A stretch of 64,000 nt of DNA from positions 137 through 64,136 of the forward strand of contig CALVZW010000001.1 of the NCBI GenBank assembly GCA_944372675.1. Direction: 5' to 3'. This DNA comes from an uncultured Clostridia bacterium. Its GTDB lineage: Bacteria > Bacillota > Clostridia > Christensenellales > UBA1242. Of this stretch, positions 10,601 to 55,352 are shown in pieces; the first letter of the stretch is position 1, and each line of letters starts with the position of its first letter. The notes beneath the pieces were generated by a model. That model ran no database searches and was not told the DNA's origin. It saw nothing but the letters and a program-made list of their open reading frames with translations. A program made the position numbers and the translations under genes.

Positions 10601-12295
10601 TTATTTTTCTCTAAAAACTTTTAGTTGCAAAAACAGTGATTTATATAAATAATCTATAAAAACAACCAATGATGCAACGATTGGTATTATAATATAAGGC
10701 AAATAATCGATAAAATTACTAAGATTTAATCCGCATAAAAAGTTAACTGCAAAGGTCAATAAGACTATTACGGCAAAAATTATTAATCTTGGTAACCACT
10801 CTTTATTTATATTATAATAACCAATTAAACTAAATTCTTTTTTAACTGCAATAATTGCATAAACAATAGGGTAAATAATTGAACAACCTAAAATACCTAT
10901 TATTAAATAAGAAATTGATTGTAACTCAGTTAATGATTCTTTAAAAGCAAAATAGCATATAAACATTAATACAACCAATGTTGCGTATGATAAAATTGAT
11001 GTTAATAAATTAGTTTTATTTATGTAAACTTTATGTGATTTTAGTTTTGTGTTGTTTTTTCTATACCTTTGGACTTTTATACCATTTAGTTCACAATTAT
11101 CTATAAAATCTGTTAAAGTTGGTAAGTCATTTTCAATTTTATCTTCTTTAACATTGTCTTTGTAATTGATTTCGCTTTTTGTAATAATTGGTTCAATAAA
11201 TTGTTTTTTAGTAGATTGCGATGAATTGTAAAAATTATAATTATTAACAATATTGTTACTTCTTTTTAAAAATATGTTAGCTTTTAAATTATCATCAACT
11301 TTAACTTTATCTTTGATTAAATAAGAATCAACTTTGCTTTTTTTGACGGTTTCATTAGATTCGATACTTGGTTCGCCAAAAAGATTTTCATTGTATTGAT
11401 TACTGAGGTCTTGTTTTGAAAAGGGTAGTAAATCATTATTGTTATCAATTTTTAAAGTTGACTTATTGCTTACCATAGATTGATATTCATTCATGTACTT
11501 GCTTTTTTCATTTGGATTAAGCAAAATGCCTTGGTCAGTGTTTTCTAAGCCTGTTTTTATTACCTCATTGTTATCAGTTTTTAACTCATTTGAAGTGTTA
11601 TCTTTTTCAATCATTTCGCCAAATATGCTATCAAAGTCTATAGCATCTTCTTTTAAGTCATTATATGACAAAGTTGTTGGCTTATATAGTAGACTTGTTG
11701 AAGCGTCTTGTGGTATAATTTGTTTGTCGGATAATAATACGGCATCAGTTTTGTCATAAACTCTAAAATCATTTACTTCTTCATTTTCAGTTGAATTTTT
11801 ATTTTCAAATGATTTTTCATTTACGTTGTTTAAATTAGTATTTGCAGAGGATTGATTTAAATAATCGAGTATTGAATAATTTGAAATTGTTTCATCCTGT
11901 ATTTCTTCAGTTGGGGTAGGGGAAGAAGTATCAGTGCGTTTAGAATGTTCAATTGTGTTAAAGAAATCTGGTTGAATTGCTAAAGTTGATGAAACATTTT
12001 TACTTACATTTTCATATTTTTTAAATTCTTCAAAATTGTATGGATGTTCTTCAACATATTTTAAACCTTTTTCAGTTAATGCACTGTACCTTCGTTTGCC
12101 ACCAATTTCACTATTTTCCCAATAGGAAGTAATAAAACCTTCAGACTCTAATTTATGTAGACTACTATATAAACTTGGTAATTTAACATCTAATTGATTA
12201 AAAGTTAAATTTTTTATAGATTTAATAATTTCAAGCCCATACTTATTCCCATCTTTTAAAGTATTTAGTATGATTGAATTTATTTTTCCTCTCAT
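10601..12295 (-). CDS. PadR-family winged-helix regulator fused to a long linker and a C-terminal 4-TM membrane domain
   Basis: The N-terminal ~90 aa (NTLKDGNKYGLEII...LPSLYSSLHKLESEGFITSYWE...GGKRRYSALTEKG) match the PadR wHTH pattern. The middle is N/S/T/E-rich. The last ~150 aa contain four hydrophobic helices. Confidence 0.7.
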   Translation of the reverse strand: MRGKINSIILNTLKDGNKYGLEIIKSIKNLTFNQLDVKLPSLYSSLHKLESEGFITSYWENSEIGGKRRYSALTEKGLKYVEEHPYNFEEFKKYENVSKNVSSTLAIQPDFFNTIEHSKRTDTSSPTPTEEIQDETISNYSILDYLNQSSANTNLNNVNEKSFENKNSTENEEVNDFRVYDKTDAVLLSDKQIIPQDASTSLLYKPTTLSYNDLKEDAIDFDSIFGEMIEKDNTSNELKTDNNEVIKTGLENTDQGILLNPNEKSKYMNEYQSMVSNKSTLKIDNNNDLLPFSKQDLSNQYNENLFGEPSIESNETVKKSKVDSYLIKDKVKVDDNLKANIFLKRSNNIVNNYNFYNSSQSTKKQFIEPIITKSEINYKDNVKEDKIENDLPTLTDFIDNCELNGIKVQRYRKNNTKLKSHKVYINKTNLLTSILSYATLVVLMFICYFAFKESLTELQSISYLIIGILGCSIIYPIVYAIIAVKKEFSLIGYYNINKEWLPRLIIFAVIVLLTFAVNFLCGLNLSNFIDYLPYIIIPIVASLVVFIDYLYKSLFLQLKVFREK

Positions 12296-12378: not shown

Positions 12379-12436
12379 ATAATACACCATATTTAGTGTA
12401 TTATAAACTCATAATACACAATATAAGGGGTAATAT
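12379..12436. repeat. palindrome doublet, locus A (two 26-bp units in 32-bp phase)
   Basis: ATAATACAC-CATATTTA-GTGTATTAT at 12379-12404, linker AAACTC, then ATAATACAC-AATATAAG-GGGTAATAT at 12411-12436. The second unit contains the SD (AAGGGG) and abuts the ATG at 12437. Confidence 0.9.
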
Positions 12437-13117
12437 ATGATTGATTACATACAAAGAACTGCAAGAAAAACACTTTCAATAATAATTAATGAAAAAGGTG
12501 AAGTAACTGTAAAAGCACCTAAAAGAATGTCAGAAAGTGATATCTATAAATTTGTACAATCAAAAGAAAAATGGATTAACTCAAAAGTTAATTCAATTAA
12601 ACAGCAAAATGAAATTAATAATGATTTATTTAATTATAAATGTATTTTGTTTTGTGGCAAAAAATATAGAGTTATAAAAGATACAAAGGCAAAAGATATT
12701 CAATTGGAAGAGGGTATAATAACCATAAAAAAACTTTCTTCATTAAAAAGGGAAGTGCGAGTTTTAGAAAAATTTTTGAAAAACAAATGTTTAGAAATAG
12801 TAGGGCAAAGACTTAAATATTTTTCAAATATAATGCAGTTAGAGCCACAAAAAGTAGTTTTAATGAATTCAAAAAGAAAGTGGGGCACTTGTGATAGTGA
12901 CCAAGTAATATCTTTTAATTGGCGAATAATTATGTTAACACCTAATTTAATTGATTATGTAATTGTACACGAGTTATCGCATTTAATTGAAATGAACCAT
13001 TCTCCAGCATTTTGGGCAATAGTCAGTGCGGTATTACCAAATGTAAAACAATTGAGAAGCACTTTAAAACAATGTAATTTTATTTTACAACAATTTAGAG
13101 AAATTCCTATTGATTAA
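12437..13117 (+). CDS. YgjP-like zinc metallohydrolase (DUF45/M48-like)
   Basis: 226 aa with the C-terminal motif VIVHELSHLIEMNHSPAFW (HExxH) typical of the YgjP family. Confidence 0.75.
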   Translation: MIDYIQRTARKTLSIIINEKGEVTVKAPKRMSESDIYKFVQSKEKWINSKVNSIKQQNEINNDLFNYKCILFCGKKYRVIKDTKAKDIQLEEGIITIKKLSSLKREVRVLEKFLKNKCLEIVGQRLKYFSNIMQLEPQKVVLMNSKRKWGTCDSDQVISFNWRIIMLTPNLIDYVIVHELSHLIEMNHSPAFWAIVSAVLPNVKQLRSTLKQCNFILQQFREIPID

Positions 13118-13150
13118 TATATAATTTAACAGCAATATTAAACAAAATTA

Positions 13151-13184
13151 AGCAGAATATATTGTGGTATTCTGTTTTTTTTTA
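13151..13184 (+). terminator. intrinsic terminator of the ygjP-like gene
   Basis: Stem CAGAATA (13153-13159) pairs with TATTCTG (13168-13174), followed by T9 at 13175-13183. Confidence 0.75.
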
Positions 13185-13765
13185 CATGTAAAATTTATTA
13201 TGTGTTTAAAATTTGGTGTAGGGCGATATTGTTTTTAATATATACATATCTATTCGCTAAAGACAACTTTAGCGAATAGATATAGCAAAAATACCCTAAA
13301 AATAAGATTTTTTTCACAATATTTGTTAAATTTTATACATTATTTATTAAATTTTTTTTATTATATTTAAATAAAATTCTTTGTTTATTTTCAAATATTT
13401 TTGCATTTAATTTTGCATTGTAATCGATTTTTAAAAATTTTAATGAACTTTTATTCGTTTTTATTTTAAAATTTTGCTATAACATTTTTTATTTAATTTG
13501 TTTTATTTTTATAATACTATTAAAAAATATTTTCATAATACCATTTTCATATAATTAAATTTATTTGTAATATATAATACATTGATTATACATTTAAGTT
13601 TGTATAAAATTTATAAATATTTTTATAAATTGAAATTTTGTATTTGTAATTATTATAAGTTTAATTAACATAAATTTTTTTATGCTTGTTGAATTAGTTT
13701 TTTATATTATTATTAAAATTTAATATCAATAATTTAAATAATTAATTTAATATATTTGTATTTAA
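13185..13765. other. gene-free, extremely AT-rich intergenic desert
   Basis: No ORF of 60 aa or more in any frame between 13118 and 13800. This is the longest non-coding stretch in the window. Confidence 0.8.
13246..13283. repeat. perfect 38-bp palindrome (17-bp arms, 4-bp centre)
   Basis: ATATCTATTCGCTAAAG-ACAA-CTTTAGCGAATAGATAT with arms verified base by base. There is no adjacent U-run on either strand. Confidence 0.9.
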
Positions 13766-13794
13766 TTGATAAAAATTAAAAAATTTGATATAAT
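13766..13794 (+). promoter_or_regulatory. sigma-A type promoter with extended -10, positioned for a leaderless recombinase mRNA
   Basis: -35 TTGATA at 13766-13771, a 17-bp spacer, then TGATATAAT at 13786-13794. The ATG is at 13801 with no SD. Confidence 0.55.
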
Positions 13795-13800
13795 CAATGT

Positions 13801-14880
13801 ATGGATAATAATGAAACATACATTCAGCAAAGAGATGCAAAAAATATAATTAAATTAAGAAAATTAAGGGATGAATTACCTGTTTTTTGTTCAGAATTTT
13901 TTATAGGAATTGAAAATACAACAAGTGTTTTAACTAGAATTGCCTATGCACAAGATTTAAATGTATTTTTCAAGTTTTTAACACAAGAAATACCATATTT
14001 TGAGAACAAAGATATTCGCTTAATCGCCCTTTCCGACTTAAATCATGTAACTGCTGAAAATATAGAATTATTTTTAGACTATTTAAATTTATATTATAAC
14101 AATGGTAAAAAAGTTACAAATAATGATAAGGCAAAAGCAAGAAAACTTGCAACAATACGTAGTTTATTTAAGTATTTTTACAAAAAAAATAAAATTGAAC
14201 AAAATGTTGCGCAAAAAGTTGATATGCCTAAAATTTATAATAAGACTATTGTACGATTAGAGCCTAATGAAGTTGAAAATTTATTAAATATTGTGGATAA
14301 TGGTGATGTTTCATTAACTAGACAACAAAAAGATTTTCATAAGCACACCAGAACGCGCGATTTAGCAATTTTAATGTTATTTTTAGGTACTGGTATAAGA
14401 ATTAGCGAATTAGTTGGAATAAATATTAAAGATATTAATTTTGATGAAAATTCATTTGTTATAACTCGTAAAGGCGGTGACCAATATATACTTTATTTTT
14501 CAAATGAAGTTGCAAACGCCCTACTCCATTACAAAGTGCTTAGAGAACAAATAAAGACTAAAAATCCTCAAGATAATGATGCATTTTTTCTATCATTACA
14601 AAATAAAAGAATTACTACAAGAGCAGTACAAAATTTAGTCAAAAAATATAGTAAAATCGCATCTCCATTAAAGAAAATATCACCGCATAAATTAAGAAGT
14701 ACTTATGGAACAAATTTATATCAACAAACGCACGATATTTATATTGTTGCAGATGTTTTAGGACATAAAGATGTTAACACTACTAAAAAACATTATGCTG
14801 CCATTAGTGAAAATATAAGAAAAGATGCTTCAAAACATATTAAATTAAGAAATAATGATGAAGATAATTATGATGACTAA
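13801..14880 (+). CDS. site-specific tyrosine recombinase, Xer family (long, XerS-like architecture)
   Basis: 359 aa with catalytic pattern GIRISEL (Arg I), HKLRST (His/Arg II) and LGHKDVNTTKKHY (His, Tyr). The N-terminal SAM-like core-binding domain is longer than in typical XerC/D. Confidence 0.8.
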   Translation: MDNNETYIQQRDAKNIIKLRKLRDELPVFCSEFFIGIENTTSVLTRIAYAQDLNVFFKFLTQEIPYFENKDIRLIALSDLNHVTAENIELFLDYLNLYYNNGKKVTNNDKAKARKLATIRSLFKYFYKKNKIEQNVAQKVDMPKIYNKTIVRLEPNEVENLLNIVDNGDVSLTRQQKDFHKHTRTRDLAILMLFLGTGIRISELVGINIKDINFDENSFVITRKGGDQYILYFSNEVANALLHYKVLREQIKTKNPQDNDAFFLSLQNKRITTRAVQNLVKKYSKIASPLKKISPHKLRSTYGTNLYQQTHDIYIVADVLGHKDVNTTKKHYAAISENIRKDASKHIKLRNNDEDNYDD

Positions 14881-15076
14881 TTGTTTTACAGTTTTTAATT
14901 TAAATAATAATTAAAATTTAATTTTATAATCTATTAAATTTTATTTATTAAAAGTTTGTAAAATTTACAAATTTTATTATGTTTAATTATTATTTTTAAT
15001 TTTTAAACATTTTTTTGTGAATATAAAGGTATTTGATAACATATTTAAATAAACATATTTTTAATCAAAAAAACTT

Positions 15077-15090
15077 AGAACAATTGTTTG
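15077..15090. promoter_or_regulatory. LexA (SOS/Cheo) box upstream of lexA
   Basis: AGAACAATTGTTTG compared with the Firmicutes consensus CGAAC-N4-GTTCG. It ends 7 bp upstream of the lexA -35. Confidence 0.6.
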
Positions 15091-15097
15091 ATAATGA

Positions 15098-15126
15098 TTG
15101 ACAAAAAGTTTTTTATATGGTATACT
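15098..15126 (+). promoter_or_regulatory. lexA promoter
   Basis: -35 TTGACA at 15098-15103, a 17-bp spacer, then -10 TATACT at 15121-15126. Confidence 0.65.
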
Positions 15127-15154
15127 CAAGAAAAATACAAAGGAGAATATAATT

Positions 15155-15787
15155 ATGGCAAAAAATAATCAAAAAATTGACTATATGCTAGATTATATCG
15201 CATCTTACTCAAAAGATAATGGATTTCCCCCAAGCATACGAGAAATTCAAAATAAATTTAATTTTAAGTCGACTTCTACGGTGTCATATTATCTTAAGAA
15301 ATTAGAAGAAAGAGGCGATGTTGTTAGCAAAGGTAGAAAAAATAGAACATTAACAATTTCGCCAAGATATTATGATGAGCATCCGGAATTATCAAAAAAA
15401 TTCTTAGATAAAGATTTTAATTTAATTCCCCTACTCGGTTGTATAACTGCTGGTCAACCAATTTTAGCTGAAGAAAATTATGATGAATCATTTTTTATTC
15501 CAACTAACTTGTTTAGAGGTGATAACTTATTTATGCTTACAGTAAGTGGTGAAAGTATGATTGAAGCAGGTATTTATGATGGGGATAAGATTATCGTTCG
15601 TAAACAAGAAACAGCCGAAAATGGTGAAATTATTGTTGCTTTAATTGAAAATTCTGCTACAGTTAAAACTTATTATAAGGAAGAAAATAGAATTCGTTTG
15701 CAACCCGAAAACTCAACAATGCAACCGATGTACTTTGATAATATTAGTATTTTAGGTAAAGTTATTGGTTTAATTAGAAAAATGTAA
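15155..15787 (+). CDS. lexA: LexA repressor
   Basis: Start at MAKNNQ, with SD AAGGAGA upstream. The ORF-track start at 15098 lies in the promoter. It has an N-terminal wHTH and a C-terminal S24 peptidase with the GESM serine and the VKTY lysine. Confidence 0.92.
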   Translation: MAKNNQKIDYMLDYIASYSKDNGFPPSIREIQNKFNFKSTSTVSYYLKKLEERGDVVSKGRKNRTLTISPRYYDEHPELSKKFLDKDFNLIPLLGCITAGQPILAEENYDESFFIPTNLFRGDNLFMLTVSGESMIEAGIYDGDKIIVRKQETAENGEIIVALIENSATVKTYYKEENRIRLQPENSTMQPMYFDNISILGKVIGLIRKM

Positions 15788-15841
15788 TACACAAATTGTT
15801 GTGTATTATAAAAGTAGAATACACAATATAAAGTGTATTCT
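15784..15841. repeat. palindrome doublet, locus B (overlaps the lexA stop; the second unit doubles as a terminator)
   Basis: GTAATACAC-AAATTGTT-GTGTATTAT at 15784-15809, linker AAAAGT, then AGAATACAC-AATATAAA-GTGTATTCT at 15816-15841. The stem extends to 12 bp (15813-15844) and is followed by T8. Confidence 0.9.
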
Positions 15842-15990
15842 ACTTTTTTTTAAAAATTTTACAATTATAAATTTATAAAATTAAAGTAAATAAATACTGT
15901 ATTATATCTAATAATTTTATTTTAATTATCAATTATATTTAATTATATATTGATAAAAATTATTTGAATAATTATATTAAAATTATTTAA

Positions 15991-16962
15991 TTATTTAACA
16001 AATTGTTTATATTTTTGTAATACAAATTGAATTATATTTTGTTCATCTTGTAAATTTTCATTATTCATAAATATAATATTTTTTGTGTATCTTTTATACC
16101 AAGTTATTTGTCTTTTAGCATAATTTCGAGAATGTTGTTTAACTTTTTCAATAGCATTGTTTAATGTATCATTGCCATTAAAATAATCAAAAAATTCTTT
16201 ATAGCCAATTGCATATGACACTTGTAGTTTTTTATTTAATTTGTTTTGCAAATCGAAAATATATTTTGCTTCTGTTAATAGTCCATTTTCTAACATTTCA
16301 TCAACTCGTGAATTAATATCATTATATAATTTTTCTCTATCCTTATTTAAAAAAATTATAAAATATTCATAAGGTGAATTTTCAAAATTATTTTTGTTTT
16401 GTCTTATGTTAGATAATTTTTCATTTGTGGAATGACAAATTTCTAATGTTCTAATAATTTTTTTGGTATCGTTAATGTTTAATTTTTTTGCCGTTTGTTC
16501 ATCTACTTTTAGCAACAAATTATATAATGCTTTTTTCCCCTGCTCTTCAAGAATTTTATTTAAACATTTGCGATATTCTTCGTCTTTTTGACATTGTGCA
16601 AAATCATAAGGGAATAAAAGGCTTTCAATATATAAACCGGTTCCACCTACTATTATTGGCAGTTTTTTATTTTGATATATTAAATTTATTTGTTTAACTG
16701 TATCATTTTTAAATTCTGCAGTACTATATTCTTCTTCAATATTTTTTATGTCAATATTGTAATGAGGATATTTTTTTAGCAATTTTTCATCAAGTTTTGC
16801 AGTTGCAATATTACATTGTCTATAAATTTGCATTGAATCGGCAGAAATTAAAGAACAATTTAAAATATCATAAAGTTTAAGTGCTACTTTTGTCTTACCT
16901 ACACCTGTTGGGCCTGCTAATATAAGCAAAGGTATTTTATTTATAGTACTCGTTTGAACCAT
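15991..16962 (-). CDS. miaA: tRNA dimethylallyltransferase
   Basis: 323 aa with P-loop GPTGVGKT and the miaB-mutS-mutL-miaA synteny. Confidence 0.9.
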   Translation of the reverse strand: MVQTSTINKIPLLILAGPTGVGKTKVALKLYDILNCSLISADSMQIYRQCNIATAKLDEKLLKKYPHYNIDIKNIEEEYSTAEFKNDTVKQINLIYQNKKLPIIVGGTGLYIESLLFPYDFAQCQKDEEYRKCLNKILEEQGKKALYNLLLKVDEQTAKKLNINDTKKIIRTLEICHSTNEKLSNIRQNKNNFENSPYEYFIIFLNKDREKLYNDINSRVDEMLENGLLTEAKYIFDLQNKLNKKLQVSYAIGYKEFFDYFNGNDTLNNAIEKVKQHSRNYAKRQITWYKRYTKNIIFMNNENLQDEQNIIQFVLQKYKQFVK

Positions 16963-26506: not shown

Positions 26507-26590
26507 TTAGTTTCCCTCCTATAGTATTAAGACTCGCTGAATAAGGCGACTTGCGTACTTAAAAAGCCCACTCCAAGCGGTACTGCAGTA
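26507..26590 (-). promoter_or_regulatory. L21 (rplU) leader, ribosomal-protein autoregulatory 5' UTR
   Basis: This is the only GC-enriched, structured non-coding segment in the window. It sits between a consensus promoter and rplU, the position of the Firmicutes L21 leader. Confidence 0.55.
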
Positions 26591-26619
26591 AGTATATCTA
26601 AATTAACTCAATTTGTCAA
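26591..26619 (-). promoter_or_regulatory. rplU operon promoter
   Basis: On the minus strand: TTGACA (26619-26614), a 17-bp spacer, then TATACT (26596-26591). Confidence 0.7.
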
Positions 26620-28017: not shown

Positions 28018-29118
28018 ATGAAAATTTGCGGAATAATATGCGAACTTAATCCGGCACATAACGGACATAAGTTTTTAATTGAAGAAGTAAAACGGAAAAC
28101 TAATTGTGATTTAGTCATAGCAATTATGAGTGGAAATTTTGTTCAGCGTGGCGAACCTGCTATATTTGACTACCAAACTCGTGCACAAATGGCTATAAAT
28201 GTTGGTTTTGATGCTGTTATTTATTTGCCAACGGTTTACACTTTAAATTCGGCTGAAAATTTTGCTGGGCAGACTTTGTTTGTAGCAAGTCAATTTAATT
28301 TAGATTATTTAGCATTTGGAGTAAACTCTAATGAAGAAATTTTATATAAAATTAATGATTTAAAACAAAATGTTGATTTTAATAATTTAATTAAAAACAA
28401 TTTATCAAAAGGCTTTTCATTTTCAAATTCGTTTAGTAAAGCAGTTTATGAAAAATTGCATACAAATATAACTGCTAATGATATTTTAGCACTAGAATAT
28501 TTGTCAGTTATTGATGATAAAAAATATAATTTTACACCAATTATTATCAATAGAAATAATGAAATATCAGCAACAAAAATACGAAAGTTAATTTTGACAA
28601 AGCAATTTGACAAACTTTCTAATATGATTGATGAAAATAATTTAAATTTAATAAAAAAATCTAAAGTCAATAACTATAACAAATTTAATATGGTTATTTA
28701 TTCCAACATAATATCAAGTACGAAAGAAACCTTAGTAAATATAAAAGATATGCGTGAAGGAATTGAAAACAAAATATACAACGCAAATTCCAATACACTA
28801 TATGGTTTAAATAAGCAAGTAAAATCAAAAAGATACAATCAAAAATATTTAAATAGATTGTACTTAAATATATTATTTGGCATAACAAAAGATTCTAATG
28901 TTATGCTTCCCTATTTAAAAATTGTTGCAGTAAAAAATAAAACTGTTTTAAATAATTTAAAGTGTAAATTGCCTTTAATTACAACTTTAAAAAATAAAAA
29001 TATTTTAAATGAAAATAGCATTTATGATTACGATATCTTAAGTTCAAAAATTTATAATTCCGTTAATAAAATAAATTCCAATGCTTTCCCATATCAAAAA
29101 ATTATAATACACAATTAA
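28018..29118 (+). CDS. tmcAL: tRNA(Met) cytidine acetate ligase (YlbM/UPF0348 nucleotidyltransferase)
   Basis: The N-terminus GIICELNPAHNGHKFLI...MSGNFVQRGEPA matches the YlbM/TmcAL pattern. Confidence 0.8.
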   Translation: MKICGIICELNPAHNGHKFLIEEVKRKTNCDLVIAIMSGNFVQRGEPAIFDYQTRAQMAINVGFDAVIYLPTVYTLNSAENFAGQTLFVASQFNLDYLAFGVNSNEEILYKINDLKQNVDFNNLIKNNLSKGFSFSNSFSKAVYEKLHTNITANDILALEYLSVIDDKKYNFTPIIINRNNEISATKIRKLILTKQFDKLSNMIDENNLNLIKKSKVNNYNKFNMVIYSNIISSTKETLVNIKDMREGIENKIYNANSNTLYGLNKQVKSKRYNQKYLNRLYLNILFGITKDSNVMLPYLKIVAVKNKTVLNNLKCKLPLITTLKNKNILNENSIYDYDILSSKIYNSVNKINSNAFPYQKIIIHN

Positions 29119-29161
29119 TTGCGTATTATAAAAATATAATACACTACATTTAGTGTATTAT
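29104..29161. repeat. palindrome doublet, locus C (overlaps the last codons and stop of tmcAL)
   Basis: ATAATACAC-AATTAATT-GCGTATTAT at 29104-29129, linker AAAAAT, then ATAATACAC-TACATTTA-GTGTATTAT at 29136-29161, followed by a T-run. Confidence 0.9.
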
Positions 29162-29219
29162 ATTTTTTTTATAGATAAAATTCATTTTTATAATATAGAT
29201 AAATGCAAAGTATTAATAA

Positions 29220-35077: not shown

Positions 35078-35082
35078 TTAAA

Positions 35083-35131
35083 AAATGAACTATTTGCAAT
35101 TTTAAATTAGTTGCATTAAGTTCATTTTTTG
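35083..35131 (+). terminator. intrinsic terminator of the acyl-CoA synthetase gene
   Basis: Outer stem AATGAACT (35084-35091) pairs with AGTTCATT (35119-35126), with inner TGCAA/TTGCA pairing and a T-run. Confidence 0.55.
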
Positions 35132-35204
35132 TTAATTAATTAAATAAATAAAATACATTATTTTTTTAAATTTTAATAAACAATAAATTATAATGTTTAA
35201 AAAC

Positions 35205-35262
35205 ATAATACACAACATATTGCGTATTATATTTTTATAATACTCAATATCTAATATTCGAA
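35205..35262. repeat. palindrome doublet, locus D (second unit decayed)
   Basis: ATAATACAC-AACATATT-GCGTATTAT at 35205-35230, linker ATTTTT, then a left arm ATAATACTC at 35237-35245 with no matching right arm. It overlaps the stop of the 86-aa gene. Confidence 0.8.
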
Positions 35263-39611: not shown

Positions 39612-39669
39612 ATAATACACTAAATATGGTGTATTATTATTTTATAATACACCATATTTGCTTATTATA
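39612..39669. repeat. palindrome doublet, locus E
   Basis: ATAATACAC-TAAATATG-GTGTATTAT at 39612-39637, linker TATTTT, then ATAATACAC-CATATTTG-CTTATTATA at 39644-39669. The right arm of the second unit is decayed, and its centre is almost the reverse complement of the first unit's centre. Confidence 0.88.
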
Positions 39670-53133: not shown

Positions 53134-55224
53134 TTAAATTTTTTGTATTAATCTTAAATCAATTCTTCCTCTGTTGTCAACTTTAATAACTTCAACTTTA
53201 ACCTTATCGCCCACAACAACAACATCTTCAGTTTTTTCAATATGTTTGTCGGAAAGTTTTGAAATATGAATTAAGCCTTCTTTAGTTGGAGATAATTTTA
53301 CAAATGCACCAAAATCACTAGTTCTAACAACTTGTCCATTTAAAATCATACCAACTTCAACTTCCATAACAATGCCTTCAATAATTTCTTTTGCTCGTTG
53401 AATCATTTTTGCATCAAAGCCGGCAATAGTAACAAAACCATCATCTTCAATGTCAATTTTTACATTTGTTTCTTCAATTATTTTATTGATACTCTTACCA
53501 CCAGAGCCAATAACATCTTTAATTTTATCAGGGTCAATATTTAAAGTTGCAATTTTTGGTGCGTATGGTGATAATTCAGTTCTTGGCATACTAATTGTTT
53601 CAAGCATTTTATTCATAATAAATAATCTACCGATTCTTGCCTTTTCCAAAGCAGTTCTTAAGATATTTTCATCAATGCCTTTAATTTTAATATCCATTTG
53701 AATTGCTGTAATACCCTTTTCAGTCCCTGCAACTTTAAAATCCATATCGCCATAAAAATCTTCTTCGCCTTGAATGTCAGTCAAAACAAAAGTTTTATCA
53801 TCGGCTTTGATTAACCCCATAGCAATACCTGCAACAGGTGAAGAAATTGGTACACCAGCATCCATCAAAGCAAGTGTAGAACCGCAAACACTTGCCTGCG
53901 AAGTTGAGCCATTTGAACTCAATACTTCTGAAACTGTTCTTATTGAATAAGGGAATTCTTCTTCAGTAGGTAAAACTGGTTCCAATGCCCTTTCAGCAAG
54001 TGCCCCATGTCCAATTTCACGACGACCAGGTGTACGCAACATTTTTGCTTCACCTGTGCTGTAAGGTGGCATATTGTATTGATGCATATATCGTTTTTCT
54101 TCTTCTTGTTGACTAAGCCCATCAATTTTTTGCATTTCACTTAACATACCCAAAGTACAAGTTGTTAAGACTTGTGTTTGTCCACGAGTAAAGACTCCTG
54201 AACCGTGAACTCTTGGAAGCAACCCAACTTGACACCAAATCGGGCGAATTTCATCTAATGAACGACCATCTAAACGAATTCCTTTTTCAACTATTTTATT
54301 TCTTACTTTTTCTTTTGTCATTGCATAAATAGTTGAATTTACAATGGCTTCAATATTTTCCACTTCAGGATATTTTGATGAAAATTCATTTAAACATTCT
54401 TGCTTTAAATCAGCATCTCTTTGCTGTCTTTCTTCACGAATGATTGTGTCAAGTACATAGTTAAGTTTTTCATTAGCGTAATCTTTTACTTCTGCCCTAA
54501 TTTGTGTAGTAAGTTCATCTTCAGTTGTAACGCATTTTTTATCTTTACTAAATTCTTTAATAATTTGTAATTGAAACTCAACTTGTTTTTTAATTTCTTC
54601 GTGTGCTACCATAATTGCTTTAAGCATTGTTTCTTCATCAACGAATTTAGCCCCTGCTTCAACCATTAAAATAGCGTCGTGTGTTCCGCTTACAGTTAAA
54701 TTAAGTAAACTTTTTTCTCTTTGTTCTAAATTAGGATTTAAAATAAATTCTCCATCAACAAGAGCAACATTTACAGCACCAGTTGGACCTTCAAACGGAG
54801 CAGACGAAATGGACAAGGCAATACTTGACCCAAGCATACACAATGCTTCAGGTGCTACATCTGGGTCAACTGAAAGCGGTGTCGCAACAATTGAAATGTC
54901 ATTGTAAAAGTTTTTAGGGAACAATGGTCTTAAAGGACGGTCAATTAATCTTGAGTTTAAAATTGCCTTATCAGAAGGCTTACCCTCGCGTCTTTTGTAA
55001 CTACCAGGTATTTTACCCACTGCATAAAGTTTTTCTTCAAAATCAACACTTAATGGAAGAAAATCAACTCCATCACGTGCTTTATCAGCAACTGTTACAT
55101 TAACCATTACTACCGTATCTTGACATCTTACTAAACAAGAACCATCGGCTTGCATTGCGTATCTGCCTAGTTCTACTTTTACTGGTTTTCCCCCATAAGT
55201 TGTTTCAAATATTTTATTTTCCAT
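53134..55224 (-). CDS. pnp: polyribonucleotide nucleotidyltransferase (PNPase)
   Basis: 696 aa with two RNase PH domains, KH and S1 domains, and the rpsO-pnp synteny. Confidence 0.96.
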   Translation of the reverse strand: MENKIFETTYGGKPVKVELGRYAMQADGSCLVRCQDTVVMVNVTVADKARDGVDFLPLSVDFEEKLYAVGKIPGSYKRREGKPSDKAILNSRLIDRPLRPLFPKNFYNDISIVATPLSVDPDVAPEALCMLGSSIALSISSAPFEGPTGAVNVALVDGEFILNPNLEQREKSLLNLTVSGTHDAILMVEAGAKFVDEETMLKAIMVAHEEIKKQVEFQLQIIKEFSKDKKCVTTEDELTTQIRAEVKDYANEKLNYVLDTIIREERQQRDADLKQECLNEFSSKYPEVENIEAIVNSTIYAMTKEKVRNKIVEKGIRLDGRSLDEIRPIWCQVGLLPRVHGSGVFTRGQTQVLTTCTLGMLSEMQKIDGLSQQEEEKRYMHQYNMPPYSTGEAKMLRTPGRREIGHGALAERALEPVLPTEEEFPYSIRTVSEVLSSNGSTSQASVCGSTLALMDAGVPISSPVAGIAMGLIKADDKTFVLTDIQGEEDFYGDMDFKVAGTEKGITAIQMDIKIKGIDENILRTALEKARIGRLFIMNKMLETISMPRTELSPYAPKIATLNIDPDKIKDVIGSGGKSINKIIEETNVKIDIEDDGFVTIAGFDAKMIQRAKEIIEGIVMEVEVGMILNGQVVRTSDFGAFVKLSPTKEGLIHISKLSDKHIEKTEDVVVVGDKVKVEVIKVDNRGRIDLRLIQKI

Positions 55225-55240
55225 TTATTTACTCCTTTGC

Positions 55241-55298
55241 ATAATACACTATATTTAGTGTATTTTATTATTATAATACCAAATATATGGTGTAATAT
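55241..55298. repeat. palindrome doublet, locus F (in the pnp 5' leader, abutting the SD)
   Basis: ATAATACAC-TATATTTA-GTGTATTTT at 55241-55266, linker ATTATT, then ATAATACCA-AATATATG-GTGTAATAT at 55273-55298. The pnp SD occupies 55232-55238. Confidence 0.88.
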
Positions 55299-55321
55299 AT
55301 TTATTTATATATTATTATTTA

Positions 55322-55352
55322 CAAAAAAGCCCAAAAATATTTTTGGGCTTTG
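55322..55352 (-). terminator. intrinsic terminator/attenuator between rpsO and pnp
   Basis: AGCCCAAAA (55328-55336) pairs with TTTTGGGCT (55341-55349). The A-run at 55323-55327 gives a U-run on the minus strand. Confidence 0.75.

Follow-up and report, generated by a model that had tools for sequence, protein, structure and literature searches.

NrdR is a repressor described as specific for ribonucleotide reductase (RNR) genes, and its recognition is unusually conserved across bacteria, the specificity being near-universal. The present analysis concerns six pairs of NrdR-box-like palindromes, here called doublets, in a stretch of 64,000 nucleotides of an uncultured Clostridia bacterium (the window; contig CALVZW010000001.1, about 27% GC). 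The doublets resemble NrdR operators in sequence and spacing and repetitive extragenic palindromic (REP) sequences in distribution. They are tentatively read as REP/BIME-style dispersed NrdR operator pairs, the transcripts of which would also form hairpins, a reading to which slightly less than an even chance is given.

The NrdR site comprises a pair of 16-bp, partially palindromic boxes with highly conserved positions C4, A6, A8, T9, T11 and G13 (PMC13584703). The boxes are separated by a linker of 15-16 bp, the sequence of which is not conserved, and both are needed for binding (PMC13584703; PMC12051234); such a linker places the centres of the boxes at a distance of about three helical turns. 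The linker may also be one helical turn longer, triple boxes are present at some RNR promoters, and the NrdR proteins of model organisms bind heterologous operators (PMC13584703). The box variant A3C,C4A is still bound in vitro, and the change G44C abolished binding at nrdEF of E. coli (PMC13584703). The doublets share with these operators the linker, always 16 bp, and the occasional triplet. They differ in number and position, as NrdR operators in the experimentally studied genomes are few and located at RNR operons while the doublets occur about once per 10 kb in convergent or intercistronic positions, and also in their conserved ATAAT/ATTAT arms and in some second boxes without G13. No literature report of dispersed NrdR-box pairs was found. 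According to the methods of two published NrdR surveys (one of them PMC12051234), only the 500 nt upstream of RNR operons were searched, and dispersed sites would therefore have gone unseen.

The REP, BIME and REPIN sequences of E. coli and Pseudomonas are, like the doublets, short imperfect palindromes in fixed-distance pairs, extragenic, and frequent at 3' ends, between convergent genes and in operons; they can form one long or two short hairpins, as some doublets may also do. Unlike them, the doublets occupy almost all orthologous sites and consist of tandem 26-bp palindromes 6 bp apart with a known transcription-factor site as the core, and no RAYT gene was seen in any of the clade loci. 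In intrinsic bidirectional terminators the hairpin stands between an A-run and a T-run, as do the hairpins of the units of two doublets (d15784 and d29104, below), but the doublets differ from such terminators in having AU-rich stems of one conserved sequence, in being always paired and in lying, in several cases, before start codons without a T-run. A functional motif in inverted pairs doubling as a gene-end terminator is also found in the DNA uptake sequences and Correia elements of Neisseria; these motifs are unrelated to the doublets, and uptake sequences occur also singly inside genes. Nothing at the doublets suggests competence or a miniature inverted-repeat transposable element with target-site duplications.

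The doublet family

The inner motif ACAC-N8-GTGT was present eight times in the window against 0.52 expected, and the extended unit ATAATACAC-N8-GTGTATTAT, with at most three mismatches, ten times against 0.18 expected. The 26-bp palindromic units form six doublets, named here by their start positions, and all of these are intergenic or overlap just the last few codons of a flanking gene (overlap in four doublets). Pair scores are those of the NrdR matrix described in the next section.

12379..12436 (d12379): units 12379-12404 and 12411-12436, divergent gap between a PadR-like gene (-) and a ygjP-like gene (+); NrdR-like cores ACACCATATTTAGTGT and ACACAATATAAGGGGT; pair score 27.8 bits
15784..15841 (d15784): units 15784-15809 and 15816-15841, convergent gap between lexA (+) and miaA (-); pair score 27.2 bits
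29104..29161 (d29104): units 29104-29129 and 29136-29161, convergent gap between a TmcAL-like gene (+) and a PepSY-like gene (-)
35205..35262 (d35205): unit 1 35205-35230, complete, and unit 2 35237-35262, left arm and centre only; convergent gap between an ADP-forming acetyl-CoA synthetase gene (+) and an open reading frame (ORF) of 86 aa (-)
39612..39669 (d39612): unit 1 39612-39637, complete, and unit 2 39644-39669, with degenerate right arm; convergent gap between murG (+) and a Sel1-repeat gene (-)
55241..55298 (d55241): units 55241-55266 and 55273-55298, between the GC-rich rpsO terminator (about 55300-55335) and the ribosome-binding site (RBS) of pnp (-); best pair of the window, 28.1 bits

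Two more elements were found in the 18 kb of the same species beyond the window, on locus L022 (L numbers denote the fetched loci), at distances of about 7 kb and 9.6 kb to the left of the first window position:

L022 17724-17814: triplet with spacings of 33 and 32 bp, convergent gap
L022 20348-20405: doublet upstream of a peptidase S8 gene, co-directional gap

The species accordingly carries about eight elements in about 82 kb, approximately one per 10 kb, and as short, imperfect and extragenic palindromes in several copies they share these properties with REP-type sequences.

The distance between unit starts was exactly 32 bp in all six window doublets and in 24 of 24 when those of relatives were included, which agrees with the 31-32 bp given in the preliminary description. 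The twelve units counted there held in part: the six doublets are real and ten units are good, while the second units of d35205 and d39612 retain the left arm and centre only, with family position weight matrix (PWM) scores of 6.4 and 8.4 against 25-33 for the other units. Also the ATAAT/ATTAT extension beyond the canonical 16 bp proved real. Position counts over the 24 doublets showed the arms to be conserved for 5-6 bp past the box on both sides (T-ATAAT-ACAC...GTGT-ATTAT-A), and within the linker the six nucleotides adjoining each box (the ATTATA and TATAAT arms) were strongly conserved and the middle four variable. Conservation in the alignment ends at the 58-bp edges, except that an A-run tends to precede the doublet and a T-run to follow it.

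Match to NrdR operators

The published regular expression for NrdR box pairs (PMC12051234) was useless at 27% GC, with 273 single boxes expected by shuffling and only two of the six doublets passing on both boxes. Because it is too loose for AT-rich DNA, a PWM was built of published boxes only, comprising 25 boxes of E. coli, S. coelicolor, Listeria and Streptococcus from DNA fragments with demonstrated NrdR binding (Table 1 of PMC13584703; Supplementary Table 3 of PMC12051234).

With this literature-only matrix, ranks 1-8 among the 63,985 16-mers of the window were all doublet units, and ten of the twelve units were within the top 22. The units scored 9-17 bits, the boxes of the matrix itself 6.7-19.2 bits when scored leave-one-out, and the best match was the box at 29141-29156 in d29104 (17.2 bits). 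As pairs with a spacing of 31 or 32 bp, five doublets reached 23-28 bits and the next unrelated window pair 9.0. In 200 dinucleotide shuffles the maximal pair score was 16.2 and none was at least 20 bits, the threshold reached by five real pairs. The doublet units, then, score like experimentally bound boxes and the pairs far above shuffles, and on these grounds the NrdR resemblance passes the PWM test. The view of the inner 16 bp as NrdR-box-like, put forward in the preliminary description, is in this way borne out by an independent matrix, and its two example boxes were found at 55246-55261 and 15821-15836 as it had placed them.

The agreement extends to positions that were unconstrained by the doublet search pattern. 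The N8 centre reads wAtATaTw, with A6, A8, T9 and T11 conserved in 20-23 of the 24 doublets and positions 5, 7, 10 and 12 variable, so that the family has C4, A6, A8, T9, T11 and G13 as the NrdR boxes do. Exceptions are the second boxes of d35205 and d39612, which are without G13, and that of d55241, in which the C has moved to position 3. The 16-bp linker of all 24 doublets is within the range of the NrdR pairs. That the box positions, the alternating centre pattern and the three-turn phasing would coincide by chance is very unlikely.

A classical-looking NrdR pair was also seen outside the family, at 1496-1545 of L040 (GenBank OR847450.1, an unverified 'Listeria phage' contig), with boxes ATACAATAGATTGTGT and ACACTACATTTAGTGT and a 15-bp linker. 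It lies directly upstream of AAGGAG and ATG, and its second box is 16/16 identical to window 29141-29156. The ORF downstream is cut by the record end and has no Pfam match.

Distribution and conservation in relatives

The species is uncultured and present in many gut-type metagenomes of ENA and Logan, one of its ENA contigs being ERZ28614111 scaffold_282. In a scan of 185,579 species genomes for the exact pattern, no more than 15 stretches matched, and they all belonged to seven metagenome-assembled genomes (MAGs) of uncultured Clostridia. Thirteen of them are at positions orthologous to window doublets, with flanking proteins 39-94% identical, and the remaining two are in new contexts, one after ftsY in a convergent gap and the other between tpiA and gpmI. 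The doublet-bearing MAGs include CALVIT01, CASDSK01, CALVJT01, CAKVOD01, CAZSGM01, CALDMJ01 and JBNMHN01. A metagenome scan gave only two short contigs, and a further doublet, between pheS and pheT, was found in a metagenome contig. To remove ascertainment bias, relatives were also fetched by TmcAL and PNPase homology alone. All three orthologous doublets were present in L032 (27% GC), and a near-perfect doublet was still found at the TmcAL end in L031, with 39.6% GC and a TmcAL 44% identical.

Compared with L032 or L031, the window doublets are identical in 43-47 of the 58 positions, and the four-fold degenerate third codon positions of the flanking genes in 37-63%. Orthologous sites were filled in every doublet-bearing relative sampled, and no lineage-specific insertions were seen. 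This conservation of position, the conservation above that of four-fold sites and the absence from outgroups (below) argue for a family that is clade-specific, old and position-stable. The retention of orthologous positions between divergent flanking proteins indicates that the doublets are under purifying selection.

No doublet was found in viral contigs. Six single-unit matches there had non-AT centres and no partner and are therefore considered unrelated to the family. Blastn of the doublet against phage and plasmid records gave weak matches only (E at least 0.1).

Two non-orthologous doublets of the same MAG (CALDMJ01), L008 3397-3454 between rpsO and pnp and L015 3204-3261 between tpiA and gpmI, have in common a distal unit of unusual sequence, (A/T)ACAAATACTATATATGGTGTATTCT, which points either to copying from one locus to the other or to a distinct subtype just upstream of a start codon.

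Hairpins and terminators

Doublets are predicted to fold as tandem hairpins with z scores from -6 to -9. A stem-loop followed by a U-run at a gene 3' end is present at d15784 and d29104, both of which have A/T-run flanks, and on one strand at d39612 and d35205. No U-run follows the hairpin at d12379, d55241, L015 or L026, and the intercistronic doublets of rpsO-pnp, tpiA-gpmI and pheS-pheT are all without a T-run, with a complete unit adjoining the downstream RBS. A variant of the unit with G2/C25 lengthens the stem beside T-runs. The five remaining convergent gaps of the window have ordinary terminators consisting of an A-run, a hairpin and a T-run, the stem sequences of which are unrelated. 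As a single hairpin suffices there, termination alone leaves the doublet form unexplained.

Stem covariation over 46 units was 0.118 compared to 0.104 in shuffled data, and 80 of 500 shuffles gave at least as much. In these units complementarity is mostly lacking at pairs 5-12 and 7-10 and pair 6-11 is conserved, a pattern that looks like the site of a two-fold symmetric (dimeric) DNA-binding protein and would fit one better than a continuous stem. Searches with Rfam gave only far-sub-threshold hairpin matches at the doublets. A role at the hairpin level is nevertheless pointed to by the A/T-run flanks, by the terminator that replaces the doublet in L030 (below), by the complementarity between units and by the conserved boxes without G13.

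Evaluation of the alternative explanations

Three explanations had been proposed in the preliminary description: an expanded or repurposed NrdR-type regulon, a repeat family that captured or mimicked the site, and a different regulator with a similar site. A blend of the first two fits best, as a clade-specific set of NrdR-type sites kept at orthologous boundaries, and it is favoured because the REP/BIME-like distribution and the single-clade origin occur together with NrdR-like features. On this hybrid explanation, the core of each doublet would be an NrdR operator pair of two 16-bp boxes and a 16-bp linker, each box being lengthened by the ATAAT/ATTAT arms to a palindrome of 26-28 bp. The pairs would have been copied around the genome of a low-GC Clostridia ancestor and then retained by selection at gene boundaries. 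We infer that NrdR is the protein bound, and the doublet DNA would dock a putative NrdR tetramer loaded with ATP/dATP. Once transcribed, the palindromes would fold to hairpins, which in convergent gaps with A- and T-runs would be bidirectional terminators and at rpsO-pnp, tpiA-gpmI and pheS-pheT intercistronic hairpins without T-runs. The effect of binding is a matter of speculation and might be a nucleotide-dependent roadblock at gene boundaries or a decoy pool titrating NrdR. The unusually conserved recognition by NrdR would explain why the same consensus survives from 27% to 40% GC.

A number of observations weigh against NrdR as the explanation. Neither nrd genes nor nrdR were present among the window ORFs in the Pfam annotation, tblastn with NrdR proteins had no hit in the window or among the related loci fetched, about 365 kb in all, and an RNR gene adjoined none of the ten genomic contexts of doublets. 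The earlier statement that no RNR gene is nearby is accordingly upheld, and no nrd gene was found in the adjoining DNA either, 10 kb to the left and 8.4 kb to the right. Doublets occupy four of nine convergent, one of nine divergent and one of 39 co-directional gaps, the opposite of the classical repressor pattern, the four in convergent gaps being d15784, d29104, d35205 and d39612. The family is confined to a small clade of uncultured low-GC Clostridia, although the specificity of NrdR is near-universal. Doublets were absent from the outgroups L039, L041 (Ca. Caccopulliclostridium, DVOJ01) and L042, and within the clade L030 (35% GC; lineage of ERZ28634729 scaffold_330) has none in 21 kb. In L030 the position of the TmcAL-end doublet is taken by a canonical terminator, and a relic, ATAATATAC, remains in the last TmcAL codons (11090-11104, ending ...ATG ATA ATA TAC TAG). 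The second boxes of d35205 and d39612 are without G13 and yet conserved in L032, and the 5-bp conserved extensions on each side are unlike the non-conserved linkers published for NrdR. The centres of the two units are complementary at 5.40 of eight positions against 4.88 in permuted pairs, a value reached by 34 of 5000 permutations in a test that is approximate since orthologs are not independent. While rpsO-pnp and murG-sel1 have this complementarity in strong form, d29104 and d15784 have none of it. One compensatory change, from A-T to G-C, is present in the long hairpin of murG-sel1. NrdR binding predicts neither the complementarity with this change nor the L030 terminator, the A/T-run flanks and the conserved second boxes without G13.

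The main alternative, though somewhat unlikely, is that the doublets are REPIN- or BIME-like palindromic repeats that act at the single-strand or RNA level only and are not bound by NrdR. They would be terminators, mRNA 3'-end protectors or intercistronic processing hairpins and could have been dispersed by a Y1 transposase of the RAYT type. Their NrdR-like core would be a coincidence or a fossil of the founding sequence. Intergenic pairs of imperfect palindromes at a fixed distance, about eight in 82 kb, restricted to a clade, enriched in convergent gaps and also present within operon-like gene pairs, would fit such a family, REPINs being described as inverted REP pairs with very long vertical persistence (PMC3337134; bioRxiv 10.1101/2022.05.22.493013). 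It would likewise account for A/T-run flanks solely where termination is expected, for the terminator in the doublet's stead in L030, for the stem-extending G2/C25 variant beside T-runs, for the raised inter-unit complementarity with its compensatory change, and for an odd unit variant (AAATAC...GTGTATTCT) at two loci of one genome (L008 and L015). However, the simultaneous match to NrdR in box positions, centre pattern and 32-bp phasing is unlikely by chance, stem covariation was not significant, and a bidirectional terminator needs one hairpin only, not a doublet. The retention of the consensus across the range of GC contents and the near-full occupancy of orthologous sites argue against turnover, and a Y1 transposase gene was in none of the clade loci according to their Pfam lists.

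It is quite unlikely that another DNA-binding protein, for instance a clade-specific dimeric regulator or a nucleoid-associated protein, reads the full palindrome of 26-28 bp including the TATAAT-like arms and only partially overlaps NrdR in specificity. Conservation 5-6 bp beyond the box on both sides, which published NrdR sites do not have, would be explained by it, as would the clade restriction and a density of about one site per 10 kb, more like the sites of nucleoid proteins than a small regulon. No candidate protein was identified, however, the exact 16-bp linker and the centre pattern are hallmarks of NrdR, and the conservation of the arms is explicable by hairpin stability. Ordinary intrinsic terminators that resemble each other through AT-rich composition, with no sequence-specific factor, are highly improbable. 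Although the hairpins with T-runs at d15784 and d29104 and the replacement of a doublet by a canonical terminator in L030 speak for them, the ordinary terminators of the window have no sequence in common, and the doublets at pnp, ygjP, gpmI and pheT lie just before start codons without a T-run. Furthermore, the doublet sequence is kept without significant compensatory drift among relatives with 40-80% protein identity, and shuffles yield essentially no such pairs.

Individual doublets and their neighbourhood

The ORFs of the window are of Bacillota type in the Pfam annotation (LexA, MutS/L, MiaA, FtsK, RecA, PNPase, S15, SpoVG, MinD/E, L21-Prp-L27 and Mur ligases). ORFs of 166, 86 and 324 aa that adjoin doublets had no Pfam match and no Zn-ribbon or ATP-cone features. 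The matches of a generic NrdR protein search were from Tissierellia, Caldicellulosiruptor and similar, which are other taxa than the doublet clade, and the NrdR candidate P0060 is from another organism with 39% GC and no doublets. A sigma-70-like scan around the doublets was no richer than shuffles, and since the TATAAT-like arms have no good -35 partner, the idea of the doublets as promoters was dropped.

The second unit of d12379 holds the ribosome-binding site AAGGGG and abuts the ATG of the ygjP-like gene at 12437. Orthologous doublets are present in L013, L019 and L020.

In d15784 the left arm contains the stop codon TAA of lexA (15785-15787), and the second unit, of the G2/C25 variant AGAATACAC...GTGTATTCT, precedes a T8 run (15844-15851). 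Two tandem hairpins are predicted for this doublet on either strand (z = -7.6 and -8.8), and L020 has an ortholog.

The stop codon of the TmcAL-like gene (29116-29118) lies inside unit 1 of d29104, which is flanked by an A6 run at 29096-29101 on the left and a T8 run at 29163-29170 on the right. This doublet is likewise predicted to form two tandem hairpins on either strand. Orthologs were found in L016, L018/L032, L021 and L031. The left arm and centre of unit 1 (29104-29118) encode the last codons of the TmcAL-like gene, Ile-Ile-His-Asn-stop, and the same is seen in L016, L031 and L032.

Unit 2 of d35205 overlaps the end of the 86-aa ORF, and its box, ACTCAATATCTAATAT, has A in place of G13. 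The ortholog in L017/L032 is identical in 47 of 58 positions, and its unit 2 is degenerate in the same way. Beside the doublet, at 35173-35198, there may be a weak third unit. In the same gap, directly after the acetyl-CoA synthetase gene, there is a canonical bidirectional terminator at 35080-35131 (A6, hairpin GAACT...AGTTC, T6), to which nothing corresponds in L017/L032. With this terminator in place, d35205 is not needed for the end of the acetyl-CoA synthetase transcript.

In d39612 the two units have centres that are reverse complements of each other, with inter-unit complementarity of 7/8. One central hairpin would therefore form, in which the right half of unit 1 pairs with the left half of unit 2. 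Its stem would have 17 bp, and 7-8 more pairs between the outer arms would close it on the outside. L009 and L017/L032 have orthologs, and it is in this long stem that the A-T to G-C change occurs.

For d55241, the RBS of pnp is at 55232-55235 (ctcc in + strand letters) and the start codon at 55224. The second box, ACCAAATATATGGTGT (ACCAAA...), has the C displaced by one position, as in the A3C,C4A variant. Orthologs were found in L007, L008, L010, L011 and L014, and identical or nearly identical copies in the same-species contigs L001-L006.

Other features of the window and of an outgroup locus

26520-26594 (-): ribosomal protein L21 leader (Rfam RF00559) upstream of the L21-Prp-L27 operon, score 36.4 bits, gathering threshold 36
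13801-14880: XerC/D-type tyrosine recombinase gene
13118-13800: AT-rich non-coding gap of 683 bp
13146-13178: terminator hairpin after the ygjP-like gene, AGCAGAATATATTGTGGTATTCTG followed by T9
13245-13284 (-): hairpin with a perfect 18-bp stem, TATATCTATTCGCTAAAG...CTTTAGCGAATAGATATG, from the terminator scan
L042 499-954 (-): gene of a 151-aa Y1 transposase (PF01797), 5 kb from pnp

The L21 leader was the sole Rfam match in the window at the gathering threshold, and tRNA genes were not found in the window. The cumulative GC skew peaks at about 14-16 kb, and the genes to the right of the peak are mostly on the - strand. The recombinase gene and the non-coding gap lie beside this switch, and the region of about 13000-16500 may be close to the replication terminus. 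No convincing dif site was found near the switch with the B. subtilis dif sequence as the query. Both hairpins listed lie downstream of the ygjP-like gene, within the large non-coding gap. The arms of the one at 13146-13178 (AGAATA/TATTCT) resemble the G2/C25 unit variant with a collapsed centre, and its NrdR-PWM rank is 18; it may be a decayed single unit.

The Y1 transposase gene of L042 is flanked by GC-rich hairpins (CCACGGG...CCCGTGG) that are unrelated to the doublets, and it looks like an element of the IS200/RAYT type. It shows that such genes exist near the lineage, though in no doublet-bearing locus seen.

Biological significance

The doublets are biased toward gene 3' ends. It is unlikely that NrdR is in these bacteria, instead of an RNR-specific repressor, a genome-wide dATP/ATP-sensing factor with on the order of a hundred conserved high-affinity operator pairs at gene boundaries, where they would be nucleotide-dependent roadblocks or terminators or form a decoy pool. 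In the decoy variant, the copy number of the pool would rise with replication, draw NrdR from nrd promoters and so couple dNTP synthesis to DNA content, in a way that can be likened to titration by DnaA boxes. If the doublets are operator-grade NrdR pairs at gene ends, NrdR would have a much wider role than the one described. Alternatively, they would be a clear case of a repeat family that has the site of a transcription factor as its basis and is maintained by selection.

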